Position numbers and translations under genes: made by a program
From: Candidatus Kuenenia stuttgartensis
GTDB taxonomy: Bacteria > Planctomycetota > UBA11346
Assembly: GCA_945876185.1 (NCBI GenBank)
Contig: CAMCMZ010000011.1
Span: forward strand, 3,275 to 67,274
DNA: 64,000 bases
Reading direction: 5' to 3'
Shown: piece by piece, positions 1 to 60,784 of the stretch
Layout of the letters: the number at the start of each line of letters is the position of its first letter
Position numbering within the stretch: position 1 is the stretch's first letter
The notes under the pieces: model-generated
What the model saw: only the letters and a program-made list of their open reading frames with translations
What the model was told of the DNA's origin: nothing
Database searches by the model: none

Positions 1-54
1 TGATGTGATCGAATCACGCCCATTCTTGAAACATTCCCACCGGAAAATCCAACA

Positions 55-154
55 AAAATCGCAAGTGCGCCCCAGATGCAAGGCGGGAGGAAGGAGTGTG
101 GCAGCGCCACATGACTGACGACCAACGCCGCAGCTGGGGTGCAATTGCGATTTT
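55..154 (-). repeat. PRE-1: 100-nt palindromic repeat element, subfamily A
   Basis: The 20-nt terminal inverted arms are aaaatcgcaagtgcgcccca and tggggtgcaattgcgatttt, with a central mini-hairpin tgtggc-agc-gccaca. It is near-identical to the copies at 13735 and 28544. In gene polarity it starts 8 nt after the stop (163-165) of the TPR gene. Confidence 0.9.
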
Positions 155-162
155 TGTGTGAG

Positions 163-921
163 TCAGTTCTTGGCCGGATCGCCGGCGGGGATGAGTGCGG
201 CACATTCGGCGACCACGTCCGGATTCGAACGGTCGCTGCGCAGGCCGGCCTGGTCGGCGATGGCGCGGGCCTGGTCGGCGTTGAGGTCGGTCGCGGCTGG
301 CAGCCCCAACGCAGCGCACGTGCGAGCCAGGCGGGCGAACAGCAGGAAGTCGTATTCGCCGCCCTTGCGGTGATAGGCGCGAAGCATCGCCGCTGATTCC
401 GTCAGCATACCCAGGGCTTCGTTGGGGCGCTTGAGGTCAAGATAGAGCGCGCCGAGGCCGCTGCGGGTGTTGATGATGCCGTTGGGGTCGTGGTGTTCGT
501 GGTAGGCCTTCAGCGCCGCGTCATAGGCCCGGCCGGCGGCGTCGAGGTCCTGGCCACGACGCAGGCAGTCGCCGCGCCGACGGAACATCAGCGGCCAGCC
601 TTGTAGGTCGTTGCTGGCGCGGAAGACACTCGTCGCCGCCTCGAAGCGGCCCAGGGCCTCGTCGCGCCGGCCGAGTTGCTCCAGCACCAGGCCCTGGTTC
701 TGCATGGTCCAGGCCGCCTGCTGCGAATTGTCGCATTCCTGAAAAAGATGCAGCGCCTGGGTGATGCGGTCGAGCGCCGTCGCGTAATCGCCCTGGCGCT
801 GGAGATCCATGCCCTGCGACCGCAAGGCCACCGCCTCGGCGAAACGCAGGCCGTCGCCGGCCCCGGCCCCTGGCCCGGAGAGGCGCACGGCGATGTGGGT
901 GCTGGAGATCGTCTTGCCCAT
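163..921 (-). CDS. TPR-repeat protein
   Basis: The ORF is 163..1113. I chose the internal ATG at 921 (MGKTISS) because the longer extension overlaps the 3' end of the GH10 gene. It carries several TPR-like helical repeats (QGDYATALDRITQALHLF, LGRRDEALGRFEAATSVF, GQDLDAAGRAYDAALKAY). Confidence 0.7.
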   Translation of the reverse strand: MGKTISSTHIAVRLSGPGAGAGDGLRFAEAVALRSQGMDLQRQGDYATALDRITQALHLFQECDNSQQAAWTMQNQGLVLEQLGRRDEALGRFEAATSVFRASNDLQGWPLMFRRRGDCLRRGQDLDAAGRAYDAALKAYHEHHDPNGIINTRSGLGALYLDLKRPNEALGMLTESAAMLRAYHRKGGEYDFLLFARLARTCAALGLPAATDLNADQARAIADQAGLRSDRSNPDVVAECAALIPAGDPAKN

Positions 922-1016: not shown

Positions 1017-2255
1017 TCAGCCGTGCGTCAGCACCAGCGTCGCCTGCGGCGTCCCATCCAGGCGGAACGTGGCCTGCAGACCTGCCGCGCTGAAGCGGTA
1101 GTCCCCGGTCCAACCCTCAAGTTTCACGCAGCCGTTGGCGTCAGTCAGCAGACTGACCTCGGTGGTCCATTCGTCGACGAGTTCGGCCAGGCGGTGCGCC
1201 GCCGGCAGCGGGGTCCAGTCCTCTACCACCAAGGAGGCAGATCGGCCGAGCCAGTGCGCCTTCGGCCAGAAACCCCAGAGCAGGATCGCCCCCACCGCCG
1301 GATGGGCGTGCGCGGTGCGCAGCATCATCTCCAGGGTGTCCGCTCGGCGCACGTCGTCGTCGGTCTTGCTGCTGACCTCGGTGATGTGGATGGGCAGGCC
1401 GAGCGCCGCCAGGCGGTCGAGCCGGCGCCAGACGTCTTCGTGCACCAATGGCCCGCGCCCGGTGCGCTCGGGGCGTTCGATCTCGTCTGCCGCGATCTTC
1501 AGGTCTGGAGCATAACGCTCGACCGCGTGCTCCTGGATGCCAATACCGCCGACCGGTGCCCCGCGCTGGCGCAGGTCGTCGATCAGGCGCAGGTAGCGCT
1601 CCAGCTTCTCGTCCTGGTCGAGAATGCCGTATTCATTGACGTAGAGCGGGCAGCCCGGATTGGCGTCGTAGGCCGCCTTGAAGATGTCGGCGTGGATCGC
1701 CGGCCCAAGCCGGCCGCCGAAGAAGCCGCCGTCCAACAGTTCGTTGTTCACGTCCCAGGCGATGAGCCGGCCGCGATAGCGCCCGACGAGGTCGCTGATG
1801 CGCGCGAACACGCGGCGGCGCAATTCATCCGGTGCCAGTTCCTGCACCCACGGTTGGGCGAACTTCTGCTTGTCCCAGAACAGGCAGTGCCCCCGCATCG
1901 GCAGGCCGTGAGATTCCGACCACGCCAGTTTCCGGTCGGCATTGGCATAGCCGACCTCATCGCACTGCGGTTCAGTCGCGTACCATTTCATCGCATTTTC
2001 GCATACCGTCGCGTTGAAGTGCCGGCGCACGAAACCCCGGTAGGCTTCGCCGGTGCGACTTTGCTCAAGCAATTGCGGCGCAACGCAGGTGCCGACCAGG
2101 AACGGATTGCGGATCAGCCGCGCCGTGATCCAGGTGCCGGCCAACGGCCGTCCGTCGGGACGGCGCAGGGTGAGCGTGGAGGAACGCCAGCGGTGCTGAC
2201 GGCTGCGGGCGCGACAGGCAGCGCGCCAGTCGGTGGATGAGGTTAAGTAATCCAT
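1017..2255 (-). CDS. Glycoside hydrolase family 10 (endo-1,4-beta-xylanase-like)
   Basis: GH10 signature segments are present: ENAMKWYATEP, WDVNNE (acid/base Glu) and IHITEVS (nucleophile Glu). The start is ATG at 2255. No obvious signal peptide. Confidence 0.8.
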   Translation of the reverse strand: MDYLTSSTDWRAACRARSRQHRWRSSTLTLRRPDGRPLAGTWITARLIRNPFLVGTCVAPQLLEQSRTGEAYRGFVRRHFNATVCENAMKWYATEPQCDEVGYANADRKLAWSESHGLPMRGHCLFWDKQKFAQPWVQELAPDELRRRVFARISDLVGRYRGRLIAWDVNNELLDGGFFGGRLGPAIHADIFKAAYDANPGCPLYVNEYGILDQDEKLERYLRLIDDLRQRGAPVGGIGIQEHAVERYAPDLKIAADEIERPERTGRGPLVHEDVWRRLDRLAALGLPIHITEVSSKTDDDVRRADTLEMMLRTAHAHPAVGAILLWGFWPKAHWLGRSASLVVEDWTPLPAAHRLAELVDEWTTEVSLLTDANGCVKLEGWTGDYRFSAAGLQATFRLDGTPQATLVLTHG

Positions 2256-2299
2256 GATTGACCTTTACGGTTGATCAATGACGTAATGCGACGAATTCA

Positions 2300-3298
2300 T
2301 TATTCCTCATAATCAGTCGACTTTTCAGCAATGTCTATGCTTGCCATCGCGAGAATGACCGAGTCTGGAAGTGGTGAGAATATAGACGATAACTGCGAAC
2401 TTTTTTCTGACAGAGTCAAAGGTGAACGCGTGTCCTTTATCCATTTTATCGCACATTTGACACATCCGCGAAGCGCGCCTATCCGATACCATTCGCTACA
2501 CGAATTCCCCGTGGGATTACTCCTCGAATTCTCCGCGATCAATCCAAGAATATACATGGAAGCATCCGAATTGATTGCCTTTTCAACCTCAGAACAGTTC
2601 TTAAACAATCGTTCAATCAACACGTTGAAATATCGTTTGCCATAATCGCTGTAGATCTCCTTGGACCAAACCTCTAGCAGCGACTGTAGGTCATCAATTG
2701 ACAAACGCTTGCGCTCGTTGATGGCGTGCAGCGTGACGTAAATGTTCAATGCCGACCGGGAATCCTTGATGGCAATTCCTCTAGGTCTCTGTCTTGCAAT
2801 TGCCTGTCGTTTGAATTCATAGGCATCGTCGATGAGAATCGCGATCATCTTTTCATGAATTGCAGTCACATGGCCAAGTATGTCCGCCATGGCAAAGTGT
2901 TTTCGCGCTACTGTCAAAGATCTCTGGAGCCCCATGCCAGTAGCATATTTATGTCCTAGAAAGTGGTGTTCCAACGCGGAGAGATGCTTCTTTCTAATTA
3001 TTCTGGGAAAGCGGTTGTCGTACTGAAGGTTGCGAAACTGGATACAGTTAAGATCTGTCCTCTTCCAACTATAGCCCCATGATCGCAAATGATCAGCCAG
3101 GAGCAGGCAGCCAATATCATCATCCAATTCAAATAGTTTCCAGCAAATGGACTCAACAATCATTTGGGATTTTCGAAGCGAAGCACCCCCATTTTTTCTT
3201 GGGAAATCCTTCACCAGAACATGTTTCAGGTAGAGTGCTTGCAGAGTCGCTTTTTGAGTCCGTATGACACGATTCCCACTTCTTCGATGCCCAATCAT
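2300..3298 (-). CDS. Orphan hypothetical protein on a low-GC islet
   Basis: A 332-334 aa uninterrupted ORF (ATG at 3298, or GTG at 3304 overlapping the alaA stop). Hand-counted 60-nt lines give 35-48% GC against ~65-70% in the flanks. I recognise no motif. Confidence 0.7.
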   Translation of the reverse strand: MIGHRRSGNRVIRTQKATLQALYLKHVLVKDFPRKNGGASLRKSQMIVESICWKLFELDDDIGCLLLADHLRSWGYSWKRTDLNCIQFRNLQYDNRFPRIIRKKHLSALEHHFLGHKYATGMGLQRSLTVARKHFAMADILGHVTAIHEKMIAILIDDAYEFKRQAIARQRPRGIAIKDSRSALNIYVTLHAINERKRLSIDDLQSLLEVWSKEIYSDYGKRYFNVLIERLFKNCSEVEKAINSDASMYILGLIAENSRSNPTGNSCSEWYRIGALRGCVKCAIKWIKDTRSPLTLSEKSSQLSSIFSPLPDSVILAMASIDIAEKSTDYEE

Positions 3299-3300
3299 TC

Positions 3301-4545
3301 TCACCCCCTCGTCCCCCGCCGAGTCCCCCGCGCATATTCATCCAGCAGTTCCTCCATCTTCCCAAACACCTGCCGCATCTGACCCGCCTCGGGCAGCAGC
3401 GTGATGCGAAAGTGGTCGGCATAGGGCACGTTGAAGCCGTGGCCGGGGGTGACCAGGACGTGCTTGCGCTCCAGCAGATCCAACGCGAAGCGCTTGTCGT
3501 CGAAACCAGGCAGCGCCTCGGGTTTCACGCGCAACCAGGCGTAGATCGCGCCCTGCGGCGCGACCACGTCGAAATAGCGGCTGGCGGCGACGCCATCGAC
3601 CACGGCCTTGCGGGTCTCGTAGAGCCGCCCACCCGGTTTGGTGAGATCCCAGATCGATTGATGCCCGCCGAGCGCGGTCTGCACCGCCCACTGGCCGGGC
3701 ACGTTGGAGCAGAGCCTGAGACCTGCGAGCAGATCGAGCGCGAGCAGGTAATCGCGCGCGTGTTCCGTCTCACCGCTGAATGAGACCCAGCCGACGCGGT
3801 AGCCGCAGGCGCGGTAGACCTTGCTCAGGCCGCCGAAAGTGCCGACCAGGGTGCCATGGCAGACGGTAGCCATCGGGATGTAGGTGGCCCCGTCGTACAG
3901 GATCTGGTCGTAGATCTCGTCGCTGAACACCACCAGGCCGTGTTCTTCCGCAATGCGGGCGATGGCTTCCAGGGTGGCGCGCGGGTACACCGCGCCGGTC
4001 GGATTGTTGGGGTTGATCACCACGATCGCCCGCGTCTTCGGCCCGATGAGCGCGGCCAGGGCGGCGACATCAGGCTGATAGCCGAGTTCGCGCGGGCAGG
4101 GGTAGTGGCGCGCAAGGCCGCCGGCGAGCGTCGTCGCCGCCGTCCACAGCGGATAGTCGGGACTCGGGATCAGCACCTCGTCGCCATCGTTGAGCAGCGC
4201 GCGCAGGCACGACGAGATCAGTTCGCTGACCCCGTTGCCGATGAAGACCTCGTCGGCGGTGACGTCCATCACACCGCGGCTCTGCAATTGCATGACCACG
4301 GCCTCGCGCGCCGGGAAGATACCCTTCTGCGGGCCGTAGGCATCGGCCTGGTCGAGGTTCTCGATGATGGCGCGACGCATCGATTCCGGGGCGCGGAATC
4401 CGAAATTCCCAGGGTTTCCGATGTTCAACTTGACGATGTCGTAGCCGCTCTTTTCCAACTCGGCTGCACGCCGGGCGAGCGGGCCACGGATCTCGTAGCG
4501 GACGTTGGTGAGGCTTTGGCTGGGGACGATGGGCGGGGGCGGCAT
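3301..4545 (-). CDS. alaA: Alanine (glutamate-pyruvate) aminotransferase, class I PLP aminotransferase
   Basis: Colinear similarity to E. coli AlaA/YfbQ as I recall it: YEIRGP, KLNIGNP, GNGVSELI, PDYPLWTAA, INPNNPTGAVY, GLSKVYRACGYRVGW, RLCSNVP, GGRLYE. Confidence 0.9.
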   Translation of the reverse strand: MPPPPIVPSQSLTNVRYEIRGPLARRAAELEKSGYDIVKLNIGNPGNFGFRAPESMRRAIIENLDQADAYGPQKGIFPAREAVVMQLQSRGVMDVTADEVFIGNGVSELISSCLRALLNDGDEVLIPSPDYPLWTAATTLAGGLARHYPCPRELGYQPDVAALAALIGPKTRAIVVINPNNPTGAVYPRATLEAIARIAEEHGLVVFSDEIYDQILYDGATYIPMATVCHGTLVGTFGGLSKVYRACGYRVGWVSFSGETEHARDYLLALDLLAGLRLCSNVPGQWAVQTALGGHQSIWDLTKPGGRLYETRKAVVDGVAASRYFDVVAPQGAIYAWLRVKPEALPGFDDKRFALDLLERKHVLVTPGHGFNVPYADHFRITLLPEAGQMRQVFGKMEELLDEYARGTRRGTRG

Positions 4546-11880: not shown

Positions 11881-13728
11881 ATGACCGCTTCCAACGCTGC
11901 GTGCTGCCCAAATTCTTCCTGCCCTTCCCTCCTTCCGGCCCTGCTCGGCATCGCCGTCGGTGCGGCCCTGCCGGTCCTCCAGGTCGGAGGTGGCACCGGC
12001 TGGATCCTCGCCGGCGAACTGGTCGCGTTGGGTCTGGGTCTGACCATGTGGATGCGCTGGCAATCACGGCGGTCGGCAACCCGTGCCACCGACGTGCAAG
12101 CACTGGCCGTCGCTGCTGACTCGGTAGCTGGCTCGGTAGCTGGCTCGGTAACAGGCCAGGCAACCGGCCCCAGCAGCCCGGCTGCGCTGCGCGTCGGCGC
12201 GCTCTCGCTGCTAGGCACCAGCAGTGAACTCATGGACCGCGCTGAATTGACCACCGAACACGCAGGAAAAGTTGCAGAAAACGCCAAGCTGGCCAGCACC
12301 GGTATCCAGTCGGTAGCGGCCGCCGCAGAAGAGATGGCGGCCTCAGTGAAGGAAATCGCCGCGTCTTCAGCGCGGGCCTCGGTGGTCAGCGCCGATGCCG
12401 CCGCGCGCTCGGCCGAAGTCGATGCCGCCGTGCAGCGCCTGGCCACCAGTTCATCCGCGATCGGCTCGGTGGTCCAGACTATCGCCTCGATCGCCGGCCA
12501 GACCAATCTGCTGGCGCTCAACGCCACCATCGAGGCTGCCCGCGCCGGCGAAGCCGGACGCGGCTTCGCGGTGGTGGCGAGCGAGGTCAAGGCGCTGGCG
12601 CAGCAGACCGCCCAGGCGACCCAGGATGTCGGCAAGCGCATCGCCGCGATCCAGCAGGACACCAGCGCCGCTGCGGCAGCCGTGGCCGCGATCAGCACCC
12701 TGATCAAGGAACTCGACGGTCTGCAGCAGTCGGCCGCCGGGGCTGCCGAAGAACAAGCCGCGACCACCAGCGAGATGACCCGGTCGATCTCCGATTCCGC
12801 CACCGGCGTGCAGCACATCGCCAGCGAGATCGCCACCATTGCGGTTGATGCCAGGATCTTCTCGATGTCCGCCCTGAAGGTGAATGAGGCCGGACGGGAA
12901 ATGACCGCGCAGTTGGCCGCCCACCGGACTGACGACCACGGACTGATCCCGACAGCGGTCGCCGACAAGGCGATCCGCGCCCATCTCGCCTGGCGTCTGC
13001 GCTTGCTGGCGGCAACCATCACCGGTCAACCGATCGACCGCACCAAGGCCTGCGACCACACCGCCTGCGTGCTGGGCGCCTGGATGAAGTCCGTCGACGC
13101 CAACATCGCCGGGCACCCCACCTTCAAACAGCTCGATGGCCATCACCGGGCCTTCCATGCCGAAGTCGGCCGGATCATCGATCTGCTGGGCGCCGGCAAG
13201 ATCGACGAGGTCCGCCGCCAGTTCGTCGAGGGCGAATTCGTTCGACTATCAGCCGCCGTGGTGGGCGACCTGGCGGAACTGCGCCGCGACGACGATGATC
13301 TTCATGGTCGGATCAACTTCGCCTGGCGCGACGCCTACGCCACCGGCCACGCCGCCATCGACGGCCAGCACCGCGAACTCTTCCATCGCGCTGGAGACCT
13401 CTACCTGGCGATGCAAAGCGGCGATGGCCAGGCCAAGGCGAAGGAGCTGCTCGACCATCTCACCGCCTACGTGCAGACCCACTTCCACGACGAAGAGGCC
13501 ATCATGGCCAAGGCCGGCTACACCGACCTTCCCGCGCATCAGCGCCTGCACCAGGACCTCGTGCGTCAGGTGATGGAACTCTACGCCAGCATCAAACGCG
13601 GTGAACCGCTCAAAACCCTGGACGTCAGCGCCTTCCTCAGCCGCTGGCTGAGCGAGCACATCCTCAAGCACGACCACGCCTACATCGGCGCGCTGCGCGG
13701 GGCGGGACTCATCACGGCTCAGAAATAA
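11881..13728 (+). CDS. Chemoreceptor fusion: MCP signalling domain + CZB zinc-binding domain + hemerythrin domain
   Basis: There are two N-terminal TM helices with almost no loop between them. The MCP hairpin is [40 protein letters not shown]-type motifs are HLAW...CVLGAWM...HHRAFH. Hemerythrin motifs are [33 protein letters not shown] and [10 protein letters not shown]. Confidence 0.9.
12121..12156 (+). repeat. 12-nt tandem repeat x3 inside the chemoreceptor linker
   Basis: The units are tcggtagctggc, tcggtagctggc and tcggtaacaggc, encoding [12 protein letters not shown]. Confidence 0.9.
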
Positions 13729-13734
13729 CACGGA

Positions 13735-13834
13735 AAAATCGCAATTGCACCCCATCTGCGGCGTTGGTCGTCAGTCATGTGGCGCTGCCACACTCCTTCC
13801 TCCCGCCTTGCATCTGGGGCGCACTTGCGATTTT
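13735..13834 (+). repeat. PRE-2: 100-nt palindromic repeat element, subfamily A
   Basis: The arms are aaaatcgcaattgcacccca and tggggcgcacttgcgatttt, with central hairpin tgtggc-gct-gccaca. It starts 6 nt after the TAA stop (13726-13728) of the MCP-hemerythrin gene. A ~25-nt conserved tail follows (cctgaattttccc..). Confidence 0.9.
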
Positions 13835-13924
13835 TCCTGAATTTTCCCTGTTGATATATTACGAAGACGGTCGTGTTGCGAGCGCTCGAAGCTCGCGAAC
13901 GGTTGACACCTACGGACGCTGAGA

Positions 13925-13966
13925 GCCGACGACCAACGCAGCAGATGGGGCGCTATGGCCGGTTTT
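13925..13966 (-). repeat. PRE half-copy (5' arm plus ~20 nt), ccgg-arm variant
   Basis: The minus strand reads aaaaccggccatagcgccccatctgctgcgttggtcgtcgg and then diverges. It starts 5 nt after the rplM stop (13972-13974) in gene polarity. Confidence 0.7.
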
Positions 13967-13971
13967 AAAGC

Positions 13972-14406
13972 TCAGACGCCGGGAAGGGGCTTCGGGGCCT
14001 GGGCCTGGTGCGGGTGCGCGGGGCCCTTGTACATCTTCAGGCGCTTGAGCTGGTGCCGGGCCTGGATGTTCTTCGGCATCATGCGGCGCACCGCCAGCAT
14101 CAGGATGCGATCCGGGTGGCGGCTTTGCAGGTCGGCGAAGGTGTACTCGTTCAGGCCGCCGAAATAGCCGGTGTGGAAGGCGTAGATTTTCTTCTCCGCC
14201 TTGTTGCGCGTGACCACCAGGCCTTCGACATCAGTGATGACCACGAAGTTGCCGTTGTCGGCGTTCGGGGTGAAGTTCGGGTTGCCACGGCCCATCAGGG
14301 CGCGCGCGACTTCCACCGCGAACTGGCCGAGGACCTTGCCCTTCGCGCTGGCAACGTACCAGTCGTGGGTGGTCTGTTCATTCTTGAGGAGGGTAGTCTG
14401 GTTCAT
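13972..14406 (-). CDS. rplM: 50S ribosomal protein L13
   Basis: Segments WYVASAKGKVLGQFAVEVARAL and YAFHTGYFGGL...RMMPKN are typical of L13. I prefer ATG at 14406 over TTG at 14415. Confidence 0.9.
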   Translation of the reverse strand: MNQTTLLKNEQTTHDWYVASAKGKVLGQFAVEVARALMGRGNPNFTPNADNGNFVVITDVEGLVVTRNKAEKKIYAFHTGYFGGLNEYTFADLQSRHPDRILMLAVRRMMPKNIQARHQLKRLKMYKGPAHPHQAQAPKPLPGV

Positions 14407-14501
14407 GGGGTCCAATCCCGAGAAGGCTGGCGGCGGGTCGTCGCTGCAAGCGGAGGTAGGTGTGGCGGTGGTCGTGCGGCAGGTGACTGGTCAGCTGGAG
14501 C

Positions 14502-14788: not shown

Positions 14789-14888
14789 AAAATCGCAATT
14801 GCACCCCATCTGCGGCGTTGGTCGTCGGTCATTTGGCGCTGCCAAACTCCCTCCTCCCGCCTTGCATCTGGGGTACACTTGCGATTTT
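14789..14888 (+). repeat. PRE-3: 100-nt palindromic repeat element, subfamily B
   Basis: The arms are aaaatcgcaattgcacccca and tggggtacacttgcgatttt, with central hairpin tttggc-gct-gccaaa. It is the only copy not adjacent to a stop codon, lying 83 nt from both the trpS stop and the rpoZ start, and it is reversed relative to those genes. Confidence 0.9.
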
Positions 14889-14971: not shown

Positions 14972-15958
14972 CTATGCCAAACCGCACGCCGCGCGCGCGC
15001 GGTCGGTGGTGCGGCGCACGATGGCGCGGGCGCGATCGGCACCCTGGCGCAAAGCGGCGTCGACGGCGGCGGGATCGGCCATGAGCTCAGCGCGGCGGCG
15101 GCGGGCGGGGCCGAAGTGGTCGAGGATGAGACCGAGCAGAGCCAGCTTGGCGTGGCCGTAGCCGAAGCCCTGCGGGCCGGGTTCACGGTAGCGGACGGCG
15201 AGGTCGATGGTGCGTTGGTCGTTCTTGCCGGCGATGGCGCGGAAGATGCGGAAGACGTTGCAGGTCTCGGGATCCTTCGCGTCGGTCAGGCCCTTGCCGT
15301 CGGTCTTGATCGACATCACGCGCTTTTTCAGCGGATTTTCGTCCTCGAACGGATCGATGGTATTGCCGTAGCTTTTCGACATTTTCTCGCCATCGACACC
15401 GGGCAGGACTTCAGCCTCAGGCACCAGGCGATGCGCCGGCAGCTTGAAGACCGGCGCCTGGAACTCCTCGTTGAAGCGGGCGGCGAGGTCGCGGGTGATC
15501 TCGATGTGCTGGACCTGGTCACGGCCGACCGGCACCAGATCGGCATCGACGGACAGAATGTCGGCCGCCTGCAGGATTGGGTAGTTGAACAGGCCGACGT
15601 TGGGCGAGATGCCCTTGGCGAGCTTGTCCTTGTAGCCGACCATCTTTTCCATCCACGCCATCGGGCACACGCACGAGATCAGCCAGGCCAGCTCCGCGAC
15701 CTCGGGCACGTCATGCTGCAGGTACAGCGCCGTGCGCGCCGGATCGAGTCCGAACGCGAGCAGATCCGTCGCCAACTGCCGGATCGTCGCCCGATACGCT
15801 GGTGCATCGCGCTGGGTGGTCAGCGCGTGGTAGCTGGCGACGAAGATGAATTGTTCGTGGCCAAGTTCCTGAAGATCCACCCACTGGCGCACCGCGCCGC
15901 AGTAGTTGCCAAGATGGATCCGCCCGGAGGGCTGGATGCCGGAGAGGATGCGGGGCAT
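14972..15958 (-). CDS. trpS: Tryptophan--tRNA ligase
   Basis: Class I aaRS motifs are present: GIQPSGRIHLGNY (HIGH-like) and KMSKS (GEKMSKSYGN). Full-length colinearity with TrpRS. Confidence 0.9.
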   Translation of the reverse strand: MPRILSGIQPSGRIHLGNYCGAVRQWVDLQELGHEQFIFVASYHALTTQRDAPAYRATIRQLATDLLAFGLDPARTALYLQHDVPEVAELAWLISCVCPMAWMEKMVGYKDKLAKGISPNVGLFNYPILQAADILSVDADLVPVGRDQVQHIEITRDLAARFNEEFQAPVFKLPAHRLVPEAEVLPGVDGEKMSKSYGNTIDPFEDENPLKKRVMSIKTDGKGLTDAKDPETCNVFRIFRAIAGKNDQRTIDLAVRYREPGPQGFGYGHAKLALLGLILDHFGPARRRRAELMADPAAVDAALRQGADRARAIVRRTTDRARAACGLA

Positions 15959-16679: not shown

Positions 16680-16710
16680 TCCCGGGGCTGCGGCCGGCCC
16701 GGCCGCACGT

Positions 16711-16769
16711 CGATGTGGACATCGACGCTCCCTTCGCATGGCCTCTTAGGAGCGGCGATGTCCACATCG
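16711..16769. repeat. 14-bp perfect inverted repeat whose arms are themselves near-palindromes
   Basis: cgatgtggacatcg (16711-16724) and cgatgtccacatcg (16756-16769) are separated by a 31-nt spacer. The repeat lies just upstream of the M50 protease start. Confidence 0.85.
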
Positions 16770-16872
16770 CCGTCGAGGGCGAACGATACGAATGAGATGG
16801 ACGTCTACGCCCCATGCACCTGGCCGCAGCCGACGCCTGGGACCGCCGGTTTGTAACCGGCCGCTGGCCCTG

Positions 16873-16945
16873 AGGCAGTCCGACCATGGCCGAGAAAGTC
16901 CCGGGAATTACCGGGAGAATGCGATTGGCCATGGTCGGATTGCCT
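16873..16945. other. Strongly structured 73-nt intergenic element (19-bp stem enclosing a nested 6-bp hairpin), candidate ncRNA or REP-like element
   Basis: aggcagtccgaccatggcc (16873-16891) pairs with ggccatggtcggattgcct (16927-16945) with one G.U pair. The inner hairpin is tcccgg-gaatta-ccggga (16899-16916). Twin hairpins gccggtt-NNN-aaccggc flank it at 16845-16861 and 16986-17002. Confidence 0.5.
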
Positions 16946-47884: not shown

Positions 47885-49771
47885 ATGTTCGAGTTGGTCT
47901 TCCTGAGCGGACCCAAGGCGGGAGTGGTGGTTCCGATCGACAAGCCGCTTGTGGCTGGTCGCAGCCCGGACTGTTCTCTTGAAGTTCCCGATCCGAACGC
48001 CAGCCGGCAGCATGCGCGCATCCAGATGGACGGGACCGGGGTCGTCTTCACCGACAACAACTCGTCCAACGGGACCTGGATCAACGACCAGCGCATCAGC
48101 AGCGTGATCGGCAAGCCCGGCGACGTGCTGCGCCTGGGCGAAACGAAGCTGCGCCTGCAGCAGCGCCAGGCGACGAACAATGAAGAGGTCGGCTCGAGTT
48201 CGGTCTTCGGCTTCAAGGAGGTCGAAGCCGACCTCAGCCAGTCGATCGTCCTGCCGGTTGCCGACGCGGCCCCGATCGAACGCGGCCCCGAGGTCATCGG
48301 CCAGCGCCTCGCCGCGGTGCTCAAGGTCTCGAAAGCCCTGGTCAACATCAGCAATCTCGACCAGGTGCTCAACGACATCCTCGACACCCTGTTTGAGGTC
48401 TTCCCCCAGGCCGACCGTGGCTTCATCATGCTGGGCGCCGAGGTCAGCCGGCTTGAGGCCAAGGCGATCCGCCAGCGCAATCCGCGCGGCGATGAACTGC
48501 CCACGGTGTCGAATTCGATCTGCCGCCGGGCCCTGACCAGCAAGAGCGCGTTCATCTTCAATGAAGGCGCGCAGAACGACTTCGACCAGGGCCTGTCGAT
48601 CGTCTCGCTCAAGATCCGCAGCGCGATGACGGTGCCGCTGATGGTCGAAAGCGAGATCCAGGGGCTGGTCCAGATCGACACGCCCGACCGCAACCGCGCC
48701 TTCGCCGCCGAGGACCTCGAACTCGCCCTCGCCATCGCCCAGACTGCCGCCATCGCCATCCACAACGCGAAGATGCTGAAGCGGCTGGAGCGCGAGACCA
48801 CCACGCGCCAGAACCTCTGCCGCTTCCTGCCGGGTCCGCTCGCCGAGCAGGCGATGGCCGGGCAGCTCGATCTCGGCCTCGGCGGCCGGACCTATCCGGG
48901 CACCATCCTGTTCAGCGACGTGGTCGGCTTCACCCGCCTCACCGAGTCGCTTCCGCCAGGCGAGGTCGTCGCCCTGATGAACGGCTACTTCGACCGCATG
49001 GTGCCGTGCATCCTACGCGATGGCGGCGCGATCGATAAATTCATCGGCGACGCGATCATGGCCTTTTGGGGCGTGCCGATCGATCGCGGCGATTCCGCCC
49101 TGCACGCCTGCGCCGCCGGGCTGGGCATGCAGATCGGCCTGATCGGCTTCAACAGCCTGCAGGCGGCGCGTGGCAAGACCCTGCTCAGCCACGGCATCGG
49201 CATCAACAGCGGGCCGGTGGTCGCCGGCAACATCGGTTCGTCGTCCTCGCAGATCAGCTACACCCTGCTCGGCGACACCGTGAACACCGCCTCGCGCATC
49301 GAGCACGCGGCAAATCCAGGGCAGGTGCTGATCGCGCACGACACCATGGAACAACTCGGCGGACGCGGCTTCGGTCTGCGCATGCCGCCGCTGAGCGCAC
49401 GCAACAAGAGCGAACCGCTCCAGGTCTTCAGCCTGCGCGGGCTCAAGCATTCCGGCGAAGAAGTCGTTCTCTACCTGCCTGCCACCTCGGGCCCGCACGC
49501 GGTGGTGCTGATCCGCCGCCTGTCCGACCTGAGCTTCATCGCGCTGCACCCGCAGGGCTGCGATCTGGGCGCGGCCGACCTGGTCACCGCGACCGCTGAC
49601 TGGCCCAAGGTCGTGCTCGGCCGGCCCCAGGTGACGGCGGTGCTGCCAACCCAGGCCGGCGATGGCCACCTGCTGCGCGGCCAATTCAAGCTCCCTGATG
49701 CGACCCTGGCCGGGCTGATTTCCAACCAGCCGCTGACCTGCCCGGTCGGTTGGGACGCGCTGGTGCGGTGA
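47885..49771 (+). CDS. FHA domain - GAF domain - class III adenylate/guanylate cyclase with an uncharacterised C-terminal extension
   Basis: The FHA domain is GRSPDCSLEVPDPNASRQHARI...SSNGTWIND and the GAF-like region is LKVSKALVNISNLDQVLNDIL. The cyclase core is ILFSDVVGFTRLTE...KFIGDAIMAFWG...GDTVNTASRIE. About 140 aa follow with no motif I can assign. Confidence 0.85.
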   Translation: MFELVFLSGPKAGVVVPIDKPLVAGRSPDCSLEVPDPNASRQHARIQMDGTGVVFTDNNSSNGTWINDQRISSVIGKPGDVLRLGETKLRLQQRQATNNEEVGSSSVFGFKEVEADLSQSIVLPVADAAPIERGPEVIGQRLAAVLKVSKALVNISNLDQVLNDILDTLFEVFPQADRGFIMLGAEVSRLEAKAIRQRNPRGDELPTVSNSICRRALTSKSAFIFNEGAQNDFDQGLSIVSLKIRSAMTVPLMVESEIQGLVQIDTPDRNRAFAAEDLELALAIAQTAAIAIHNAKMLKRLERETTTRQNLCRFLPGPLAEQAMAGQLDLGLGGRTYPGTILFSDVVGFTRLTESLPPGEVVALMNGYFDRMVPCILRDGGAIDKFIGDAIMAFWGVPIDRGDSALHACAAGLGMQIGLIGFNSLQAARGKTLLSHGIGINSGPVVAGNIGSSSSQISYTLLGDTVNTASRIEHAANPGQVLIAHDTMEQLGGRGFGLRMPPLSARNKSEPLQVFSLRGLKHSGEEVVLYLPATSGPHAVVLIRRLSDLSFIALHPQGCDLGAADLVTATADWPKVVLGRPQVTAVLPTQAGDGHLLRGQFKLPDATLAGLISNQPLTCPVGWDALVR

Positions 49772-49782
49772 GCGGACACGTC

Positions 49783-50601
49783 ATGGATCCCCAGCCCATT
49801 CCGACGCGTTCCGAGAGCTGGCTGGCCGAAATCGTGCGCAGCATGCAGGCGGCCGAGCAGGTGGCGCTCGCGCGCGACCTCGACCCCGAAGACGAGGACC
49901 ACGAATGGTTCCTCTGCGTGGCCGAGGAGGCCGTGCGCCTCGCCCGTGCCGCGCGTGGCATTGAAGAACCTTTCGCTGATCCCGACGCCAGCATGGACGA
50001 GGTCACCGACCTCACGGTGGAACTCCGGCGCCAGGCTCCGGGCGATCCTGACAACCACCACATCAACGAACTCCAGCATTTCCTCCTGTATTACCTCGCC
50101 GCCCACGTCCATGCCGACCTTCTGCCAGCGCCGGCGGCGGGCGCGGTGGTGCATGCCTGCTGGCTCGCCCCGGTGCCGGGCGCAGATGACGACGAGGATG
50201 AAGACGCGACCGAAGTCTGGCCTATCGCCAATCCGCCCCCGGAATCCGTCCAGGCCTGGATCGATGAACTGTTGGAGGTGTGGCCATCGTGCCAGCCGGC
50301 CGCCGCCCCGGCCGGCAAGCCGCAGCGCAAGCTGCTTCAAGCCGCCGTTGCCGCCGCCTTGGCGCAGCGTGGCGTGACGGCCAAGCAGACGGCGACCGAG
50401 GAACTCGTCACGGTCATCAGTGGCATGGAGGCCGATCTGCGCCGCGAAGGGCCGGAGGTCGAGCGCCTGACCCGGTTCGCCCCCGCCGCTTTCGCGATCT
50501 ACTACCTCTGGACCCACATCGCGATCGGCCACGCCGACGAGGACCTGGCGATGACGGTGGTCCAGGCGATTGGGTCGCAGCTCGACGAATTCGAGGCCTG
50601 A
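49783..50601 (+). CDS. Hypothetical acidic protein
   Basis: An uninterrupted ORF begins 12 nt after the cyclase stop. It is Asp/Glu-rich and I recognise no motif. Degenerate PRE-7 follows directly after its stop. Confidence 0.5.
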   Translation: MDPQPIPTRSESWLAEIVRSMQAAEQVALARDLDPEDEDHEWFLCVAEEAVRLARAARGIEEPFADPDASMDEVTDLTVELRRQAPGDPDNHHINELQHFLLYYLAAHVHADLLPAPAAGAVVHACWLAPVPGADDDEDEDATEVWPIANPPPESVQAWIDELLEVWPSCQPAAAPAGKPQRKLLQAAVAAALAQRGVTAKQTATEELVTVISGMEADLRREGPEVERLTRFAPAAFAIYYLWTHIAIGHADEDLAMTVVQAIGSQLDEFEA

Positions 50602-50604
50602 ACC

Positions 50605-50697
50605 AAAAAGGGCCGTTGCGCCCCATCTGGGACCTTGGTCGTGCTCTGCTGGCGCTGCCACGGTGTCTCACCCATCTGCGGATGGTGACCGGATTTA
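50605..50697 (+). repeat. PRE-7: degenerate PRE relic
   Basis: aaaaagggccgttgcgccccatctgg..ttggtcgt..ctggcgctgccac..cacccatctgcgg retains the A-tract, ccccatctg, ttggtcgt and the central tggc-gct-gcca core. It starts 3 nt after the TGA at 50599-50601. The right arm is eroded. Confidence 0.45.
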
Positions 50698-59682: not shown

Positions 59683-60675
59683 ATGCCCAAACCCATCCGT
59701 GTCGCCGTCACCGGTGCTGCCGGTCAGATCGCCTACAGCCTCCTTCCGCGCATCGCCTCGGGCGAAATGCTTGGCAAGGACGTGCCCGTCATTCTGCATC
59801 TGCTCGACATTCCCGTGGAAAAAGCCCAGTTGGCACTGAAGGGCGTGGCGATGGAGCTCGACGACTGCGCGTTCCCGCTGCTCCAGGGGATCGTCTGCAC
59901 CGACAAGCCCGAAGTCGCCTTCAAGGATGCCAACTGGTGTCTGCTCGTCGGCGCCAAGCCGCGCGGCCCCGGCATGGAGCGCGCCGACTTGCTGAAAGAC
60001 AACGGCCGCATCTTTATCAGCCAGGGCAAGGCGATCGACGAGAACGCCGCCGATGACTGCCGCATCGCGGTGGTCGGCAATCCCTGCAACACCAACTGCA
60101 TGATCGCTGCGGCCCAGGCCAAGCGCCTGCCGCGCGAGCGCTTCACCGCGATGACCCGGCTCGACCAGAACCGCGCCTACACCCAGCTCGCCAAGAAGGC
60201 CGGCGTCGCGGTGACCGCGATCAGCGACCTGGTGATCTACGGCAACCACTCGCCGACGATGTACAGCGACTTCTACCACGCGACCATCGCCGGCAAGCCG
60301 CTGACCGAGGTCATCACCGATGAGAAGTGGCTCCAGGAAACCCTCCAGTCCACCGTCGGCAAGCGCGGAGCCGAGATCATCGCAGCGCGCGGCGCGTCGT
60401 CGGCCTTCTCGGCCGCCAACGCCCTGATCGACCACGTCCGCGCCCTGGTGACGGTCAGCCCGGCTCTGCATTCGATCGCCGTGCCAAGCGATGGCAGCTA
60501 CGGCTTCAGCGCCGGCGTCTGGGCCTCGGTGCCGGTCCGCACCACCGCCTACGGCACCTACACCGTCGACAAGTCGTACAGCCACAACGAATGGGCCCAG
60601 GGCAAGATCAAGGCCACCAACGCCGAACTGGTCGGCGAACGCGACACCATCAAGGATTTCCTGGGCGACGCCTGA
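59683..60675 (+). CDS. mdh: Malate dehydrogenase (LDH-like MDH family 2)
   Basis: [40 protein letters not shown] and TRLDQNRA are typical of MDH. Confidence 0.9.
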
Positions 60676-60684
60676 ATCAGACTA

Positions 60685-60784
60685 AAAATCGCAATTGCAC
60701 CCCATCTGCGGCGTTGGTCGTCAGTCATTTGGCGCTGCCAAACTCCTTCCTCCCGCCTTGCATCTGGGGTACACTTGCGATTTT
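60685..60784 (+). repeat. PRE-6: 100-nt palindromic repeat element, subfamily B
   Basis: The arms are aaaatcgcaattgcacccca and tggggtacacttgcgatttt, with central hairpin tttggc-gct-gccaaa. It starts 9 nt after the mdh TGA (60673-60675). Confidence 0.9.

Follow-up and report, generated by a model that had tools for sequence, protein, structure and literature searches.

The palindromic repeats that recur in the 64-kb stretch of DNA analyzed here (the window) are probably the conserved 5' module of small, non-coding elements of the MITE type, with a hairpin that is under a structural constraint of its own. The elements themselves are mobile and non-coding; they are bordered by duplications of about 8 bp in which the stop codon of a host gene is embedded, and they carry a conserved, co-varying hairpin at the gene-proximal end. 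A preliminary description of the window had left the choice between a non-autonomous element resembling MITEs or REPs and a structured RNA module. The duplications and the imperfect inverted termini described below bear out the mobile, MITE-like form of that proposal, but not the form that invokes REP elements and a RAYT enzyme.

An nhmmer profile built from six copies recovers all six in the window, with E-values of 1e-28 to 1e-33, and nhmmer together with alignment places the six full copies, a 5' half copy, and an eroded relic where the preliminary description had put them (Table 1). A covariance model run without filters yields zero additional copies across the window. The family does extend beyond it: at least 37 further copies are present in the metagenome-assembled genome CAZZJC01, referred to here as the second genome, and a locus from a microbial mat also carries the hairpin (individual loci are given L numbers). 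The window belongs to a 93-kb metagenome contig of ENA (ERZ27280287:k141_2410403), the source contig. In copy 1 (L045), the entire element is ~240 nt long, runs from 12102 to ~12342 of the source contig, and occupies the whole gap between two convergent stops; its tail can be aligned with tails of the second genome. The half copy has been aligned to the long hairpin variants of loci L014, L029, L002, and L009. It begins 5 nt past the TGA of rplM (13972-14415, minus strand; Pfam Ribosomal_L13) and lies head-on with the tail of copy 2. In the case of copy 4, the convergent gene stops 20 nt past the 3' end of the hairpin.

Table 1. Repeat copies of the window, their tails, and adjoining genes
Feature	Position	Strand	Evidence and context
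Copy 1, first 54 nt of tail	1-54	-	Remaining ~86 nt lie beyond the window start on the source contig
Copy 1, hairpin module	55-154	-	nhmmer E = 3.8e-33; covariance model 119 bits
Copy 1, 5' neighbor	163-165	-	TGA of a TPR-repeat gene, 8 nt before the hairpin; TPR Pfam hits; junction sequence
MCP-hemerythrin chemoreceptor gene	11881-13728 (TAA stop, 13726-13728)	+	Pfam MCPsignal, CZB, Hemerythrin
Copy 2, hairpin module	13735-13834	+	nhmmer E = 2.7e-33; 6 nt downstream of the chemoreceptor TAA
Copy 2, truncated tail (~55-60 nt)	13835-13895	+	Aligns as a homologue of the second genome's G1 tail
Half copy, 5' part of long-variant hairpin (~197 nt)	13906-13966	-	nhmmer 13926-13965, E = 6e-6
Copy 3, hairpin module	14789-14888	+	Antisense, flanked by trpS (stop at 14972) and an rpoZ-like gene (start ~14707)
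Copy 4, hairpin module	28544-28643	+	HemN-like radical-SAM gene (27316-28539) ends in TGA 4 nt upstream
Copy 4, start of tail	28644-28690	+	Weakly similar to other tails; reaches into the convergent gene's 3' end
Copy 5, hairpin module	31971-32072	-	nhmmer 31972-32071; LD-carboxypeptidase gene (32077-32976, minus) ends in TGA 4 nt upstream
Eroded relic	50605-50697	+	nhmmer E = 6.7e-4 over 50606-50661; 3 nt past the TGA of ORF 49750-50601
Copy 6, hairpin module	60685-60784	+	9 nt past the TGA of malate dehydrogenase (59683-60675)

The repeat unit had been taken to be about 100 nt long. That length holds for the hairpin module, but the whole element is longer, typically 240-275 nt; complete elements of 316 and 409 nt also occur, as does a single tandem duplication of 494 nt. 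Its parts follow one another in a fixed order: a left terminus, C/T-AAAAATCGCA; the imperfect hairpin of ~100 nt; a tail of 140-180 nt; and a right terminus that ends in TGCGAnnTTTAGG. A short 3' tail common to copies 1, 2, and 4 had already been noticed; it is genuine and proves to be the opening of this much longer tail module. The tail itself is nearly unstructured. A single weak hairpin of 6 bp is predicted in it, and the idea that the tail is a structured RNA was dropped on that ground. The tails, 52% conserved, have no common ORF; by inspection, there is only one of 25 codons, in a single stem variant. An antisense small ORF was also considered, in which a GGGAGGAAGGAG block is followed by a hairpin and an ATG, and was rejected for its inconsistent ORF end. 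Being non-coding and below ~500 bp, the element falls within the size range of MITEs. Its left terminus reads CAAAAATCGCA, and the right one, when reverse-complemented, reads CCTAAACCTCGCA; the two have an A-run and TCGCA in common, and the inverted repeat is imperfect and only ~11-13 bp long. All copies were found via the hairpin, an ascertainment bias by which tail-only or hairpin-less relatives would be missed.

The decisive evidence for transposition comes from a duplication test that was anchored at the element junctions of 14 composite copies. In these, the 8 nt past the 3' terminus match the copy's own 5' flank at 6.29 of 8 positions on average, compared with a mean of 5.07 of 8 when the flanks of different copies are matched with each other. 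The match is perfect (8/8) in L020 (GATGATCC), L030 (GCTGAAGC), L002 (GTGATCCA), and L005 (GTTGAACC, lying inside a 10-nt match, CGGTTGAACC). None of the 182 cross pairs reaches 8/8, and not one of 50,000 permutations attains the observed total (p<2e-5). A narrower anchored test confined to eight copies was not significant (p = 0.12), and a generic k-mer search for duplications was uninformative. The short-tailed copies 3, 5, and 6 have weak candidate duplications only, and the ends of copy 1 match at 4/8. Because the flanking repeats vary from copy to copy, they are target-site duplications rather than a fixed recombination core; because the duplication includes the stop codon of the host gene, the spacing between stop and hairpin is near constant. 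Duplications and imperfect inverted termini together point to a MITE that is moved in trans by a transposase making staggered cuts.

The placement of the copies is strongly polar. When coding frames and gene calls are assigned by a GC3-based test, 33 of the 43 copies of the window and the second genome have a same-strand, coding-like ORF whose end lies no more than 15 nt from their 5' end. The mirror test, in which an ORF on the opposite strand would have to end no more than 15 nt from the 3' end, finds 0 of 43. The covariance model likewise scores family copies at ~115-120 bits in the sense orientation versus ~45 bits in antisense (120 versus 47 bits for copy 2). The most frequent arrangement is a stop codon, then 4-5 nt, then the A-run, and the spacing falls between 3 and 9 nt in nearly every copy. 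Within the window, seven of the eight copies stand behind a same-strand stop. The exception is copy 3, the sole full or partial copy there without such a stop upstream, in which GGA is found where the others carry TGA. The genes that precede the window copies (TPR, MCP-hemerythrin, HemN-like, LD-carboxypeptidase, mdh, rplM, and ORF 49750-50601) are unrelated in function, and the genes that lie downstream may be either convergent or co-directional. The host gene is not truncated by the insertion: the C-terminus of the malate dehydrogenase that precedes copy 6 equals those of its homologues in length.

Several simple explanations of this placement were tried and rejected. Specificity for TGA is ruled out, since the stops that adjoin the element are TGA, TAA, and TAG in background proportions. 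An extended DNA target upstream of the stop was likewise discarded, as the base preceding the stop is not enriched relative to background. Finally, the element might have filled pre-existing terminators of the form TGA-N4-A-run, but element-free gene ends do not have such a pattern. The copies that do not follow a gene stop carry GGA, AGA, or TGG and then wyC at the "stop" position. We infer a loose target preference at the level of DNA (kGAwyC, at best rTGAwCC), combined with purifying selection against intragenic insertions; these two explain the strict orientation only in part. DDE transposases normally have a symmetric target consensus, and orientation-specific insertion by them is unusual. 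Given such symmetry, the polarity may partly stem from selection rather than from targeting.

Every full copy of the window forms one extended imperfect hairpin whose z-scores relative to shuffled sequences range from -5.5 to -8.3 (for copy 2, -45.4 kcal/mol and z = -6.2), and in nearly all copies a hairpin of -41 to -51 kcal/mol is followed by T5. Paired cells amount to 93.6% over 33 full copies. The stems had been said to co-vary, and in these copies both sides have changed in 13 of 37 pairs, whereas column shuffles give 6.7±1.2, with none of 500 attaining 13 two-sided pairs, and controls in which the partner is slid give 1-4. Pair (13,90) is UA in 19 copies and AU in 13; pair (40,64) is AU in 17, GC in 14, and GU in 2, with zero A·C; pair (46,58) is UA in 19 and GC in 11; and pair (47,57) is UA in 17 and GC in 14. 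The three versions of the central stem that had been reported (TGTGGC/GCCACA, TTTGGC/GCCAAA, and TTGGGC/GCCCAA) are seen as described, and the microbial-mat locus (L043, L044) adds a fourth compensated version, TGGGGC/GCCCCA. In copy 5, too, the earlier reading of the terminal arms is correct: they are rewritten on both sides, here as CCGGCG/CGCCGG, and the two conserved mismatch positions are retained. The same arm type is present in L004 and L043, and, by inspection only, a candidate outer end of copy 5 seems to mirror it. In the long variant (~197 nt), the apical 6-bp hairpin is replaced by a domain of 115 nt that is closed by a co-varying stem of 14 bp.

Substitutions of this kind might merely mark a few clonal subfamilies. 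However, when the central-stem pairs are treated as one site, 10 of the 12 combinations of three co-varying sites occur, and all of them pair; the substitutions are therefore more than markers of a few such subfamilies. The combinations reflect either recurrent double changes or short-patch exchange among copies. The strand that folds is less plainly written in the alignment. The antisense strand of copy 2 folds better, at -58 versus -45 kcal/mol. The persistent mismatches (15,88) and (16,87) become G·U on the antisense strand only; at pair (40,64), the G·U intermediates belong to the sense strand, and the sporadic mismatches favor neither strand. An attempt to read the folding strand from wobble pairs (41 A·C versus 10 G·T on the sense strand) was given up, because two sites dominate the count and pair (40,64) contradicts it. 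Hairpin-templated repair at the level of DNA, rather than selection on an RNA, could be the force that maintains the compensated stems.

The hairpin is far better conserved than the sequence that is inserted along with it. Among nine elements compared, identity is 0.90 in the hairpin versus 0.52 in the tail, and within one tail type, it is 0.91 versus 0.66. Copy 2 and L026, which come from two different assemblies (G+C ~66% and 69%), differ at 1 of 100 hairpin positions, and the near-identity of hairpins in two genomes may be due to selection or to recent transfer. Within the hairpin, the unpaired columns are less variable than the paired ones (0.061 versus 0.096). As far as the alignments can tell, conserved loops combined with co-varying stems are the pattern of a functional folded nucleic acid, and the constraint on the hairpin appears to exceed what binding of a transposase to the termini would need. 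If the elements are indeed MITEs, this difference between hairpin and tail within one element provides a rare internal control for selection on a structure that they carry.

A model that accommodates these findings runs as follows. A DDE-type, staggered-cutting transposase would act in trans. Insertion copies ~8 bp of target, with a preferred sequence of roughly n-r-T-G-A-w-C-C that contains the stop triplet; the left copy of the duplication retains the stop of the host gene, and the hairpin follows a few bases later in a single orientation. Insertions at the same motif within genes would be cleared by purifying selection. The hairpin would then be co-transcribed with the upstream gene to give a gene-end RNA hairpin, composed of an A-tract, a long stem, and a U-tract, that would terminate transcription and/or protect the 3' end. 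Its A·U base would lie close enough to the stop for contact with a terminating ribosome. An element that brings such a hairpin along would do less harm when it parts a gene from its native terminator, so that insertions could be tolerable or even useful. This putative role as a gene-end RNA hairpin is the most likely reason for the constraint. Like Rho-independent (bidirectional) terminators, the hairpin module consists of a stable stem-loop between an A-tract and a T-tract and immediately follows a gene. Unlike them, it has a stem that is 5-10 times longer, with conserved internal loops, and it is repeated and mobile; its terminator function is a prediction. A consensus terminator scan does not call the hairpin, whose stem and loop exceed the definition used by the tool.

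The model can be taken a step further, to a transposon that would seek out stop codons, always in one orientation, and leave 4-5 nt past the stop a ready-made RNA hairpin that is selected for its structure and kept for a function on the side of the host rather than for transposition. This extension is offered tentatively, as a possibility that we consider somewhat unlikely, although the superior conservation of the hairpin relative to the tail and the near-identical hairpins of two assemblies are consistent with selection for a host function. If it is true, the element would in effect be a gene-end module that is mobile and insulates itself. In dozens to hundreds of unrelated genes, it would rewrite how transcription ends, how stable the 3' end of the mRNA is, and possibly how translation ends. 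Should the favored MITE model hold, the family would offer a clear natural case of a duplication that embeds a host stop and of the same large hairpin placed at a fixed distance from the terminating ribosome, and with it a natural experiment on how RNA structure close to the 3' end affects termination, mRNA decay, and ribosome release. Palindromes that hug stop codons would gain an explanation beyond selection alone. Gene-end signals have barely been studied in the Planctomycetota, the probable host phylum. In metagenome-assembled genomes, elements of this sort also break assemblies and lead to spurious ORF calls; neither Rfam nor standard annotation includes them.

It may be asked whether mobility is incidental and the repeat is primarily a structured RNA of the host that has spread for its usefulness, for instance as a regulatory or terminator module of 3'-UTRs, or as a 3'-UTR-derived small RNA in which the pyrimidine block CUCCUUCCUCCC would mimic an anti-Shine-Dalgarno sequence. 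Much of the evidence given above would suit such an RNA: the unpaired nucleotides are the most conserved and the stems co-vary, the hairpin is better conserved than the co-inserted tail, the copies stand in sense orientation behind genes, copy 2 and its counterpart in the other assembly are almost the same, and the A-tract, stem, and U-tract resemble the design of a bidirectional terminator. However, Rfam gives 0 matches at the gathering score for the window and seven loci, and 0 even at E up to 5 for the complete element and the long variant; the duplications and modular tails show that the repeat has spread as DNA; the flanking genes have no common function; and it is the antisense strand that folds better. 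We therefore regard a primarily host-functional RNA as rather improbable, although it is compatible with the MITE explanation and does not exclude it.

Another account holds that the repeat is a REP or REPIN moved by a RAYT, or a palindromic derivative of IS200/IS605, in which a hairpin of single-stranded DNA is cut by an HUH enzyme near TGA. There is a real likeness to the REP/BIME/REPIN group in that the repeats are multi-copy, extragenic palindromes with compensated stems and a REP-like distribution. Moreover, the short, constant distance from a conserved triplet to the foot of the hairpin would suit such an enzyme, and the conserved mismatch positions could aid strand discrimination. Many REP families likewise keep close to upstream stops, clustering no more than 20 bp from the ends of the preceding ORFs (PMC3733652), and in E. 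coli, REPs positioned within 15 nt of a stop stall ribosomes, according to Liang et al. 2015 as cited in PMC12306157. Yet the unit is 100 or ~197 nt long with A- and T-run termini, rather than a pair of inverted short REPs of 20-40 nt tagged with GTAG/CGTC; the foot of the stem has neither GTAG nor CGTC, the latter being internal only. To our knowledge, HUH transposases (RAYT, IS200/IS605) leave no target duplication, which is at odds with the copy-specific duplications of ~8 bp found here. In addition, the use of TAA and TAG at background proportion means that TGA is no obligatory cleavage motif. For these reasons, a RAYT or an IS200/IS605-type tnpA, which the preliminary description had put forward as a possible partner, is disfavored, and movement by such an enzyme is very improbable.

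The search for an enzyme is in keeping with this view of the RAYT. No ORF with an HUH/Y1 (RAYT) motif was found by a crude regular-expression scan of the examined sequence, and the window has no Pfam match to Y1_Tnp. More generally, the earlier observation that the 64 kb hold neither a transposase nor an integrase stands for all sizeable ORFs with a Pfam match; a handful of ORFs match none. Across ~0.4 Mb of sequence, including the window, a further 9 kb of its contig, and 33 loci of the second genome, no transposase bounded by matching termini was found, and the examined loci contain neither extra termini nor an autonomous copy. We know of no parent IS for this hairpin element family.

A role as sites of site-specific recombination, similar to the attC sites of integrons or to Xer/dif sites and used by a tyrosine recombinase at gene ends, is close to refuted: imperfect palindromes of 100-200 nt directly behind ORFs, with conserved mismatched or extra-helical positions and a structure better conserved than the stem sequence, are indeed reminiscent of such sites, but the copies are dispersed on both strands behind housekeeping genes (mdh, rplM) rather than gathered in a one-directional cassette array, the RYYYAAC/GTTRRRY core sites are absent, the flanking repeats are specific to each copy whereas conservative recombination requires a common core, and the window has no integrase.

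If the repeats are, as we favor, parts of MITE-like elements, their closest parallels should be sought among the bacterial MITEs that form long hairpins within transcribed intergenic DNA. The Correia elements of Neisseria, the ERIC/IRU elements of enterobacteria, and the RUP elements of pneumococci are of this kind; co-transcribed with adjoining genes, they are known to serve as terminators, processing sites, or stability determinants. Like these, the present element is small, non-coding, and multi-copy, with target-site duplications; its termini are imperfectly inverted, and it would be mobilized in trans. Unlike these, it has a duplication of ~8 bp instead of TA and a target that embeds a stop and is entered in one orientation (33 versus 0), and its conserved part is a 100-nt hairpin at one end rather than the termini, with a tail that is variable and modular. 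The PATEs, which derive from IS200/IS605, have similar hairpins at both ends and insert, without duplication, on the 3' side of a fixed tetra- or pentanucleotide. The present element resembles them in its asymmetric ends, in a sub-terminal hairpin next to a short conserved flank motif, and in orientation-specific insertion, but it differs in the duplication of ~8 bp, in having only one large hairpin, and in the use of TAA and TAG besides TGA. Judged by the features that define each class, the family is not a REP/REPIN, a PATE, an attC site, or a member of any Rfam family. Even for a MITE, a duplication that embeds a stop, polar insertion, and an internal hairpin module under separate constraint are unusual.

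The family looks narrow in host range, with three assemblies among the matches listed. When one genome per species was scanned with a 23-nt core, at least 33 stretches were found, 32 of those listed being in CAZZJC01, and a scan of metagenomes gave one microbial-mat locus on two contigs, L043 and L044. A blastn comparison with plasmid and phage collections produced zero matches. The family is also absent from the mdh loci of four other Planctomycetota-like genomes, which were considered as empty sites and set aside as too divergent. Copy 6 and L022 had been candidates for one and the same site behind mdh, until tblastn showed that the upstream gene of L022 is not mdh; L010 and L040-L042, which came from pattern scans, were discarded as chance matches. 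Although CAZZJC01 is labelled Candidatus Kuenenia, its loci have ~67-71% G+C (first twelve measured), which makes that label doubtful. In the window, the gene content includes DUF4388 giants, Ser/Thr kinases, a giant PATR/cadherin protein, and an FGE-sulfatase. Even the nearest homologues of the malate dehydrogenase of the window do not exceed 80% identity, and those that carry a name bear the label Planctomycetota; these homologues and the gene content suggest that the host probably belongs to that phylum.

Members of the family, a probably MITE-like non-coding repeat built on an approximately 100-nt hairpin module with a variable tail, occur both head-on and in tandem. At 13735-13966 of the window, two elements face each other between convergent genes, copy 2 lying behind a chemoreceptor gene and a truncated copy of the long variant behind rplM. 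Each of these elements abuts the stop codon of its own gene, and both tails are truncated at the point where they meet. In the tandem arrangement, found at a locus outside the window (L030), a single pair of 8-bp target-site repeats, GCTGAAGC, flanks both units together; therefore, the element either duplicated once it had inserted or moved in its already duplicated form, as one unit.

Features outside the single family copies
Feature	Source	Position	Details
Tandem duplication, two units	L030	1822-2312 (minus strand)	unit: hairpin plus tail of about 117-129 nt
GTAG-type hairpin, not of the ~100-nt repeat family	window	33021-33090	arms CGTAGCGCCGGCTTCAGCCGGC / GCCGGCTGAAGCCGGCGCTACG
Two further long hairpins, unrelated	window	16707-16773 and 16873-16945	around the start of an M50-peptidase gene
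Nested palindrome, ~210 nt	L047 (GCA_038231435.1, JBBRLJ010000001.1)	3984-4200	TTGGGGGGCTACGGCCCCCCAA...
Low-G+C island 1	window	2001-4000	G+C 0.55 vs about 0.66
Low-G+C island 2	window	30001-32000	G+C 0.56 vs about 0.66

Long intergenic palindromes are abundant in the genome of the window. The GTAG-type hairpin, which lies in the divergent region between an LD-carboxypeptidase gene and a giant DUF4388 gene, has perfectly complementary 22-bp arms around a 26-nt spacer and folds at -54.8 kcal/mol (z = -8.5). Because GTAG stands at the start of its arms and a small palindrome lies within each of them, it looks like a classical GTAG-type REP doublet (REPIN). The hairpins at the M50-peptidase gene (z = -6.1 and -11.1) are each single-copy within the window; one has 25-nt arms with 92% complementarity and the other has nearly perfect arms of 19-21 bp. 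In another Planctomycetota-like genome, the nested palindrome of L047 is located directly 3' of the mdh TAG and is unrelated in sequence to the hairpin repeats of the window. Palindromes that abut stop codons may be a general habit of this Planctomycetota-like group.

On its antisense strand, every copy (for example, the minus strand of window 13834-13735) has a strong Shine-Dalgarno-like run, GGGAGGAAGGAG, as the complement of the pyrimidine block; the small central hairpin comes next, and then an ATG. The reading frame from this ATG is open through the end of the element, and it was dropped as a candidate gene because the copies lack a common stop. The sense-strand block, CUCCUUCCUCCC, is similar to the anti-Shine-Dalgarno sequence.

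The second genome with the family, MAG CAZZJC01 (L001-L033), was deposited under 'uncultured Candidatus Kuenenia sp.' Its loci have a G+C content of about 67-71% (measured on the first twelve), while that of Kuenenia is about 41%, and the label is probably wrong. Four loci that pattern scans picked up in three metagenome contigs and a MAG of Anaerolineae (L010, L040, L041, and L042) match the short core alone and were rejected as chance hits rather than members of the family.

Copy 5 adjoins low-G+C island 2. This island, which encodes an HTH_3 protein at 29575-30135 and a PRMT-like methyltransferase at 30173-31117, may represent DNA acquired horizontally.
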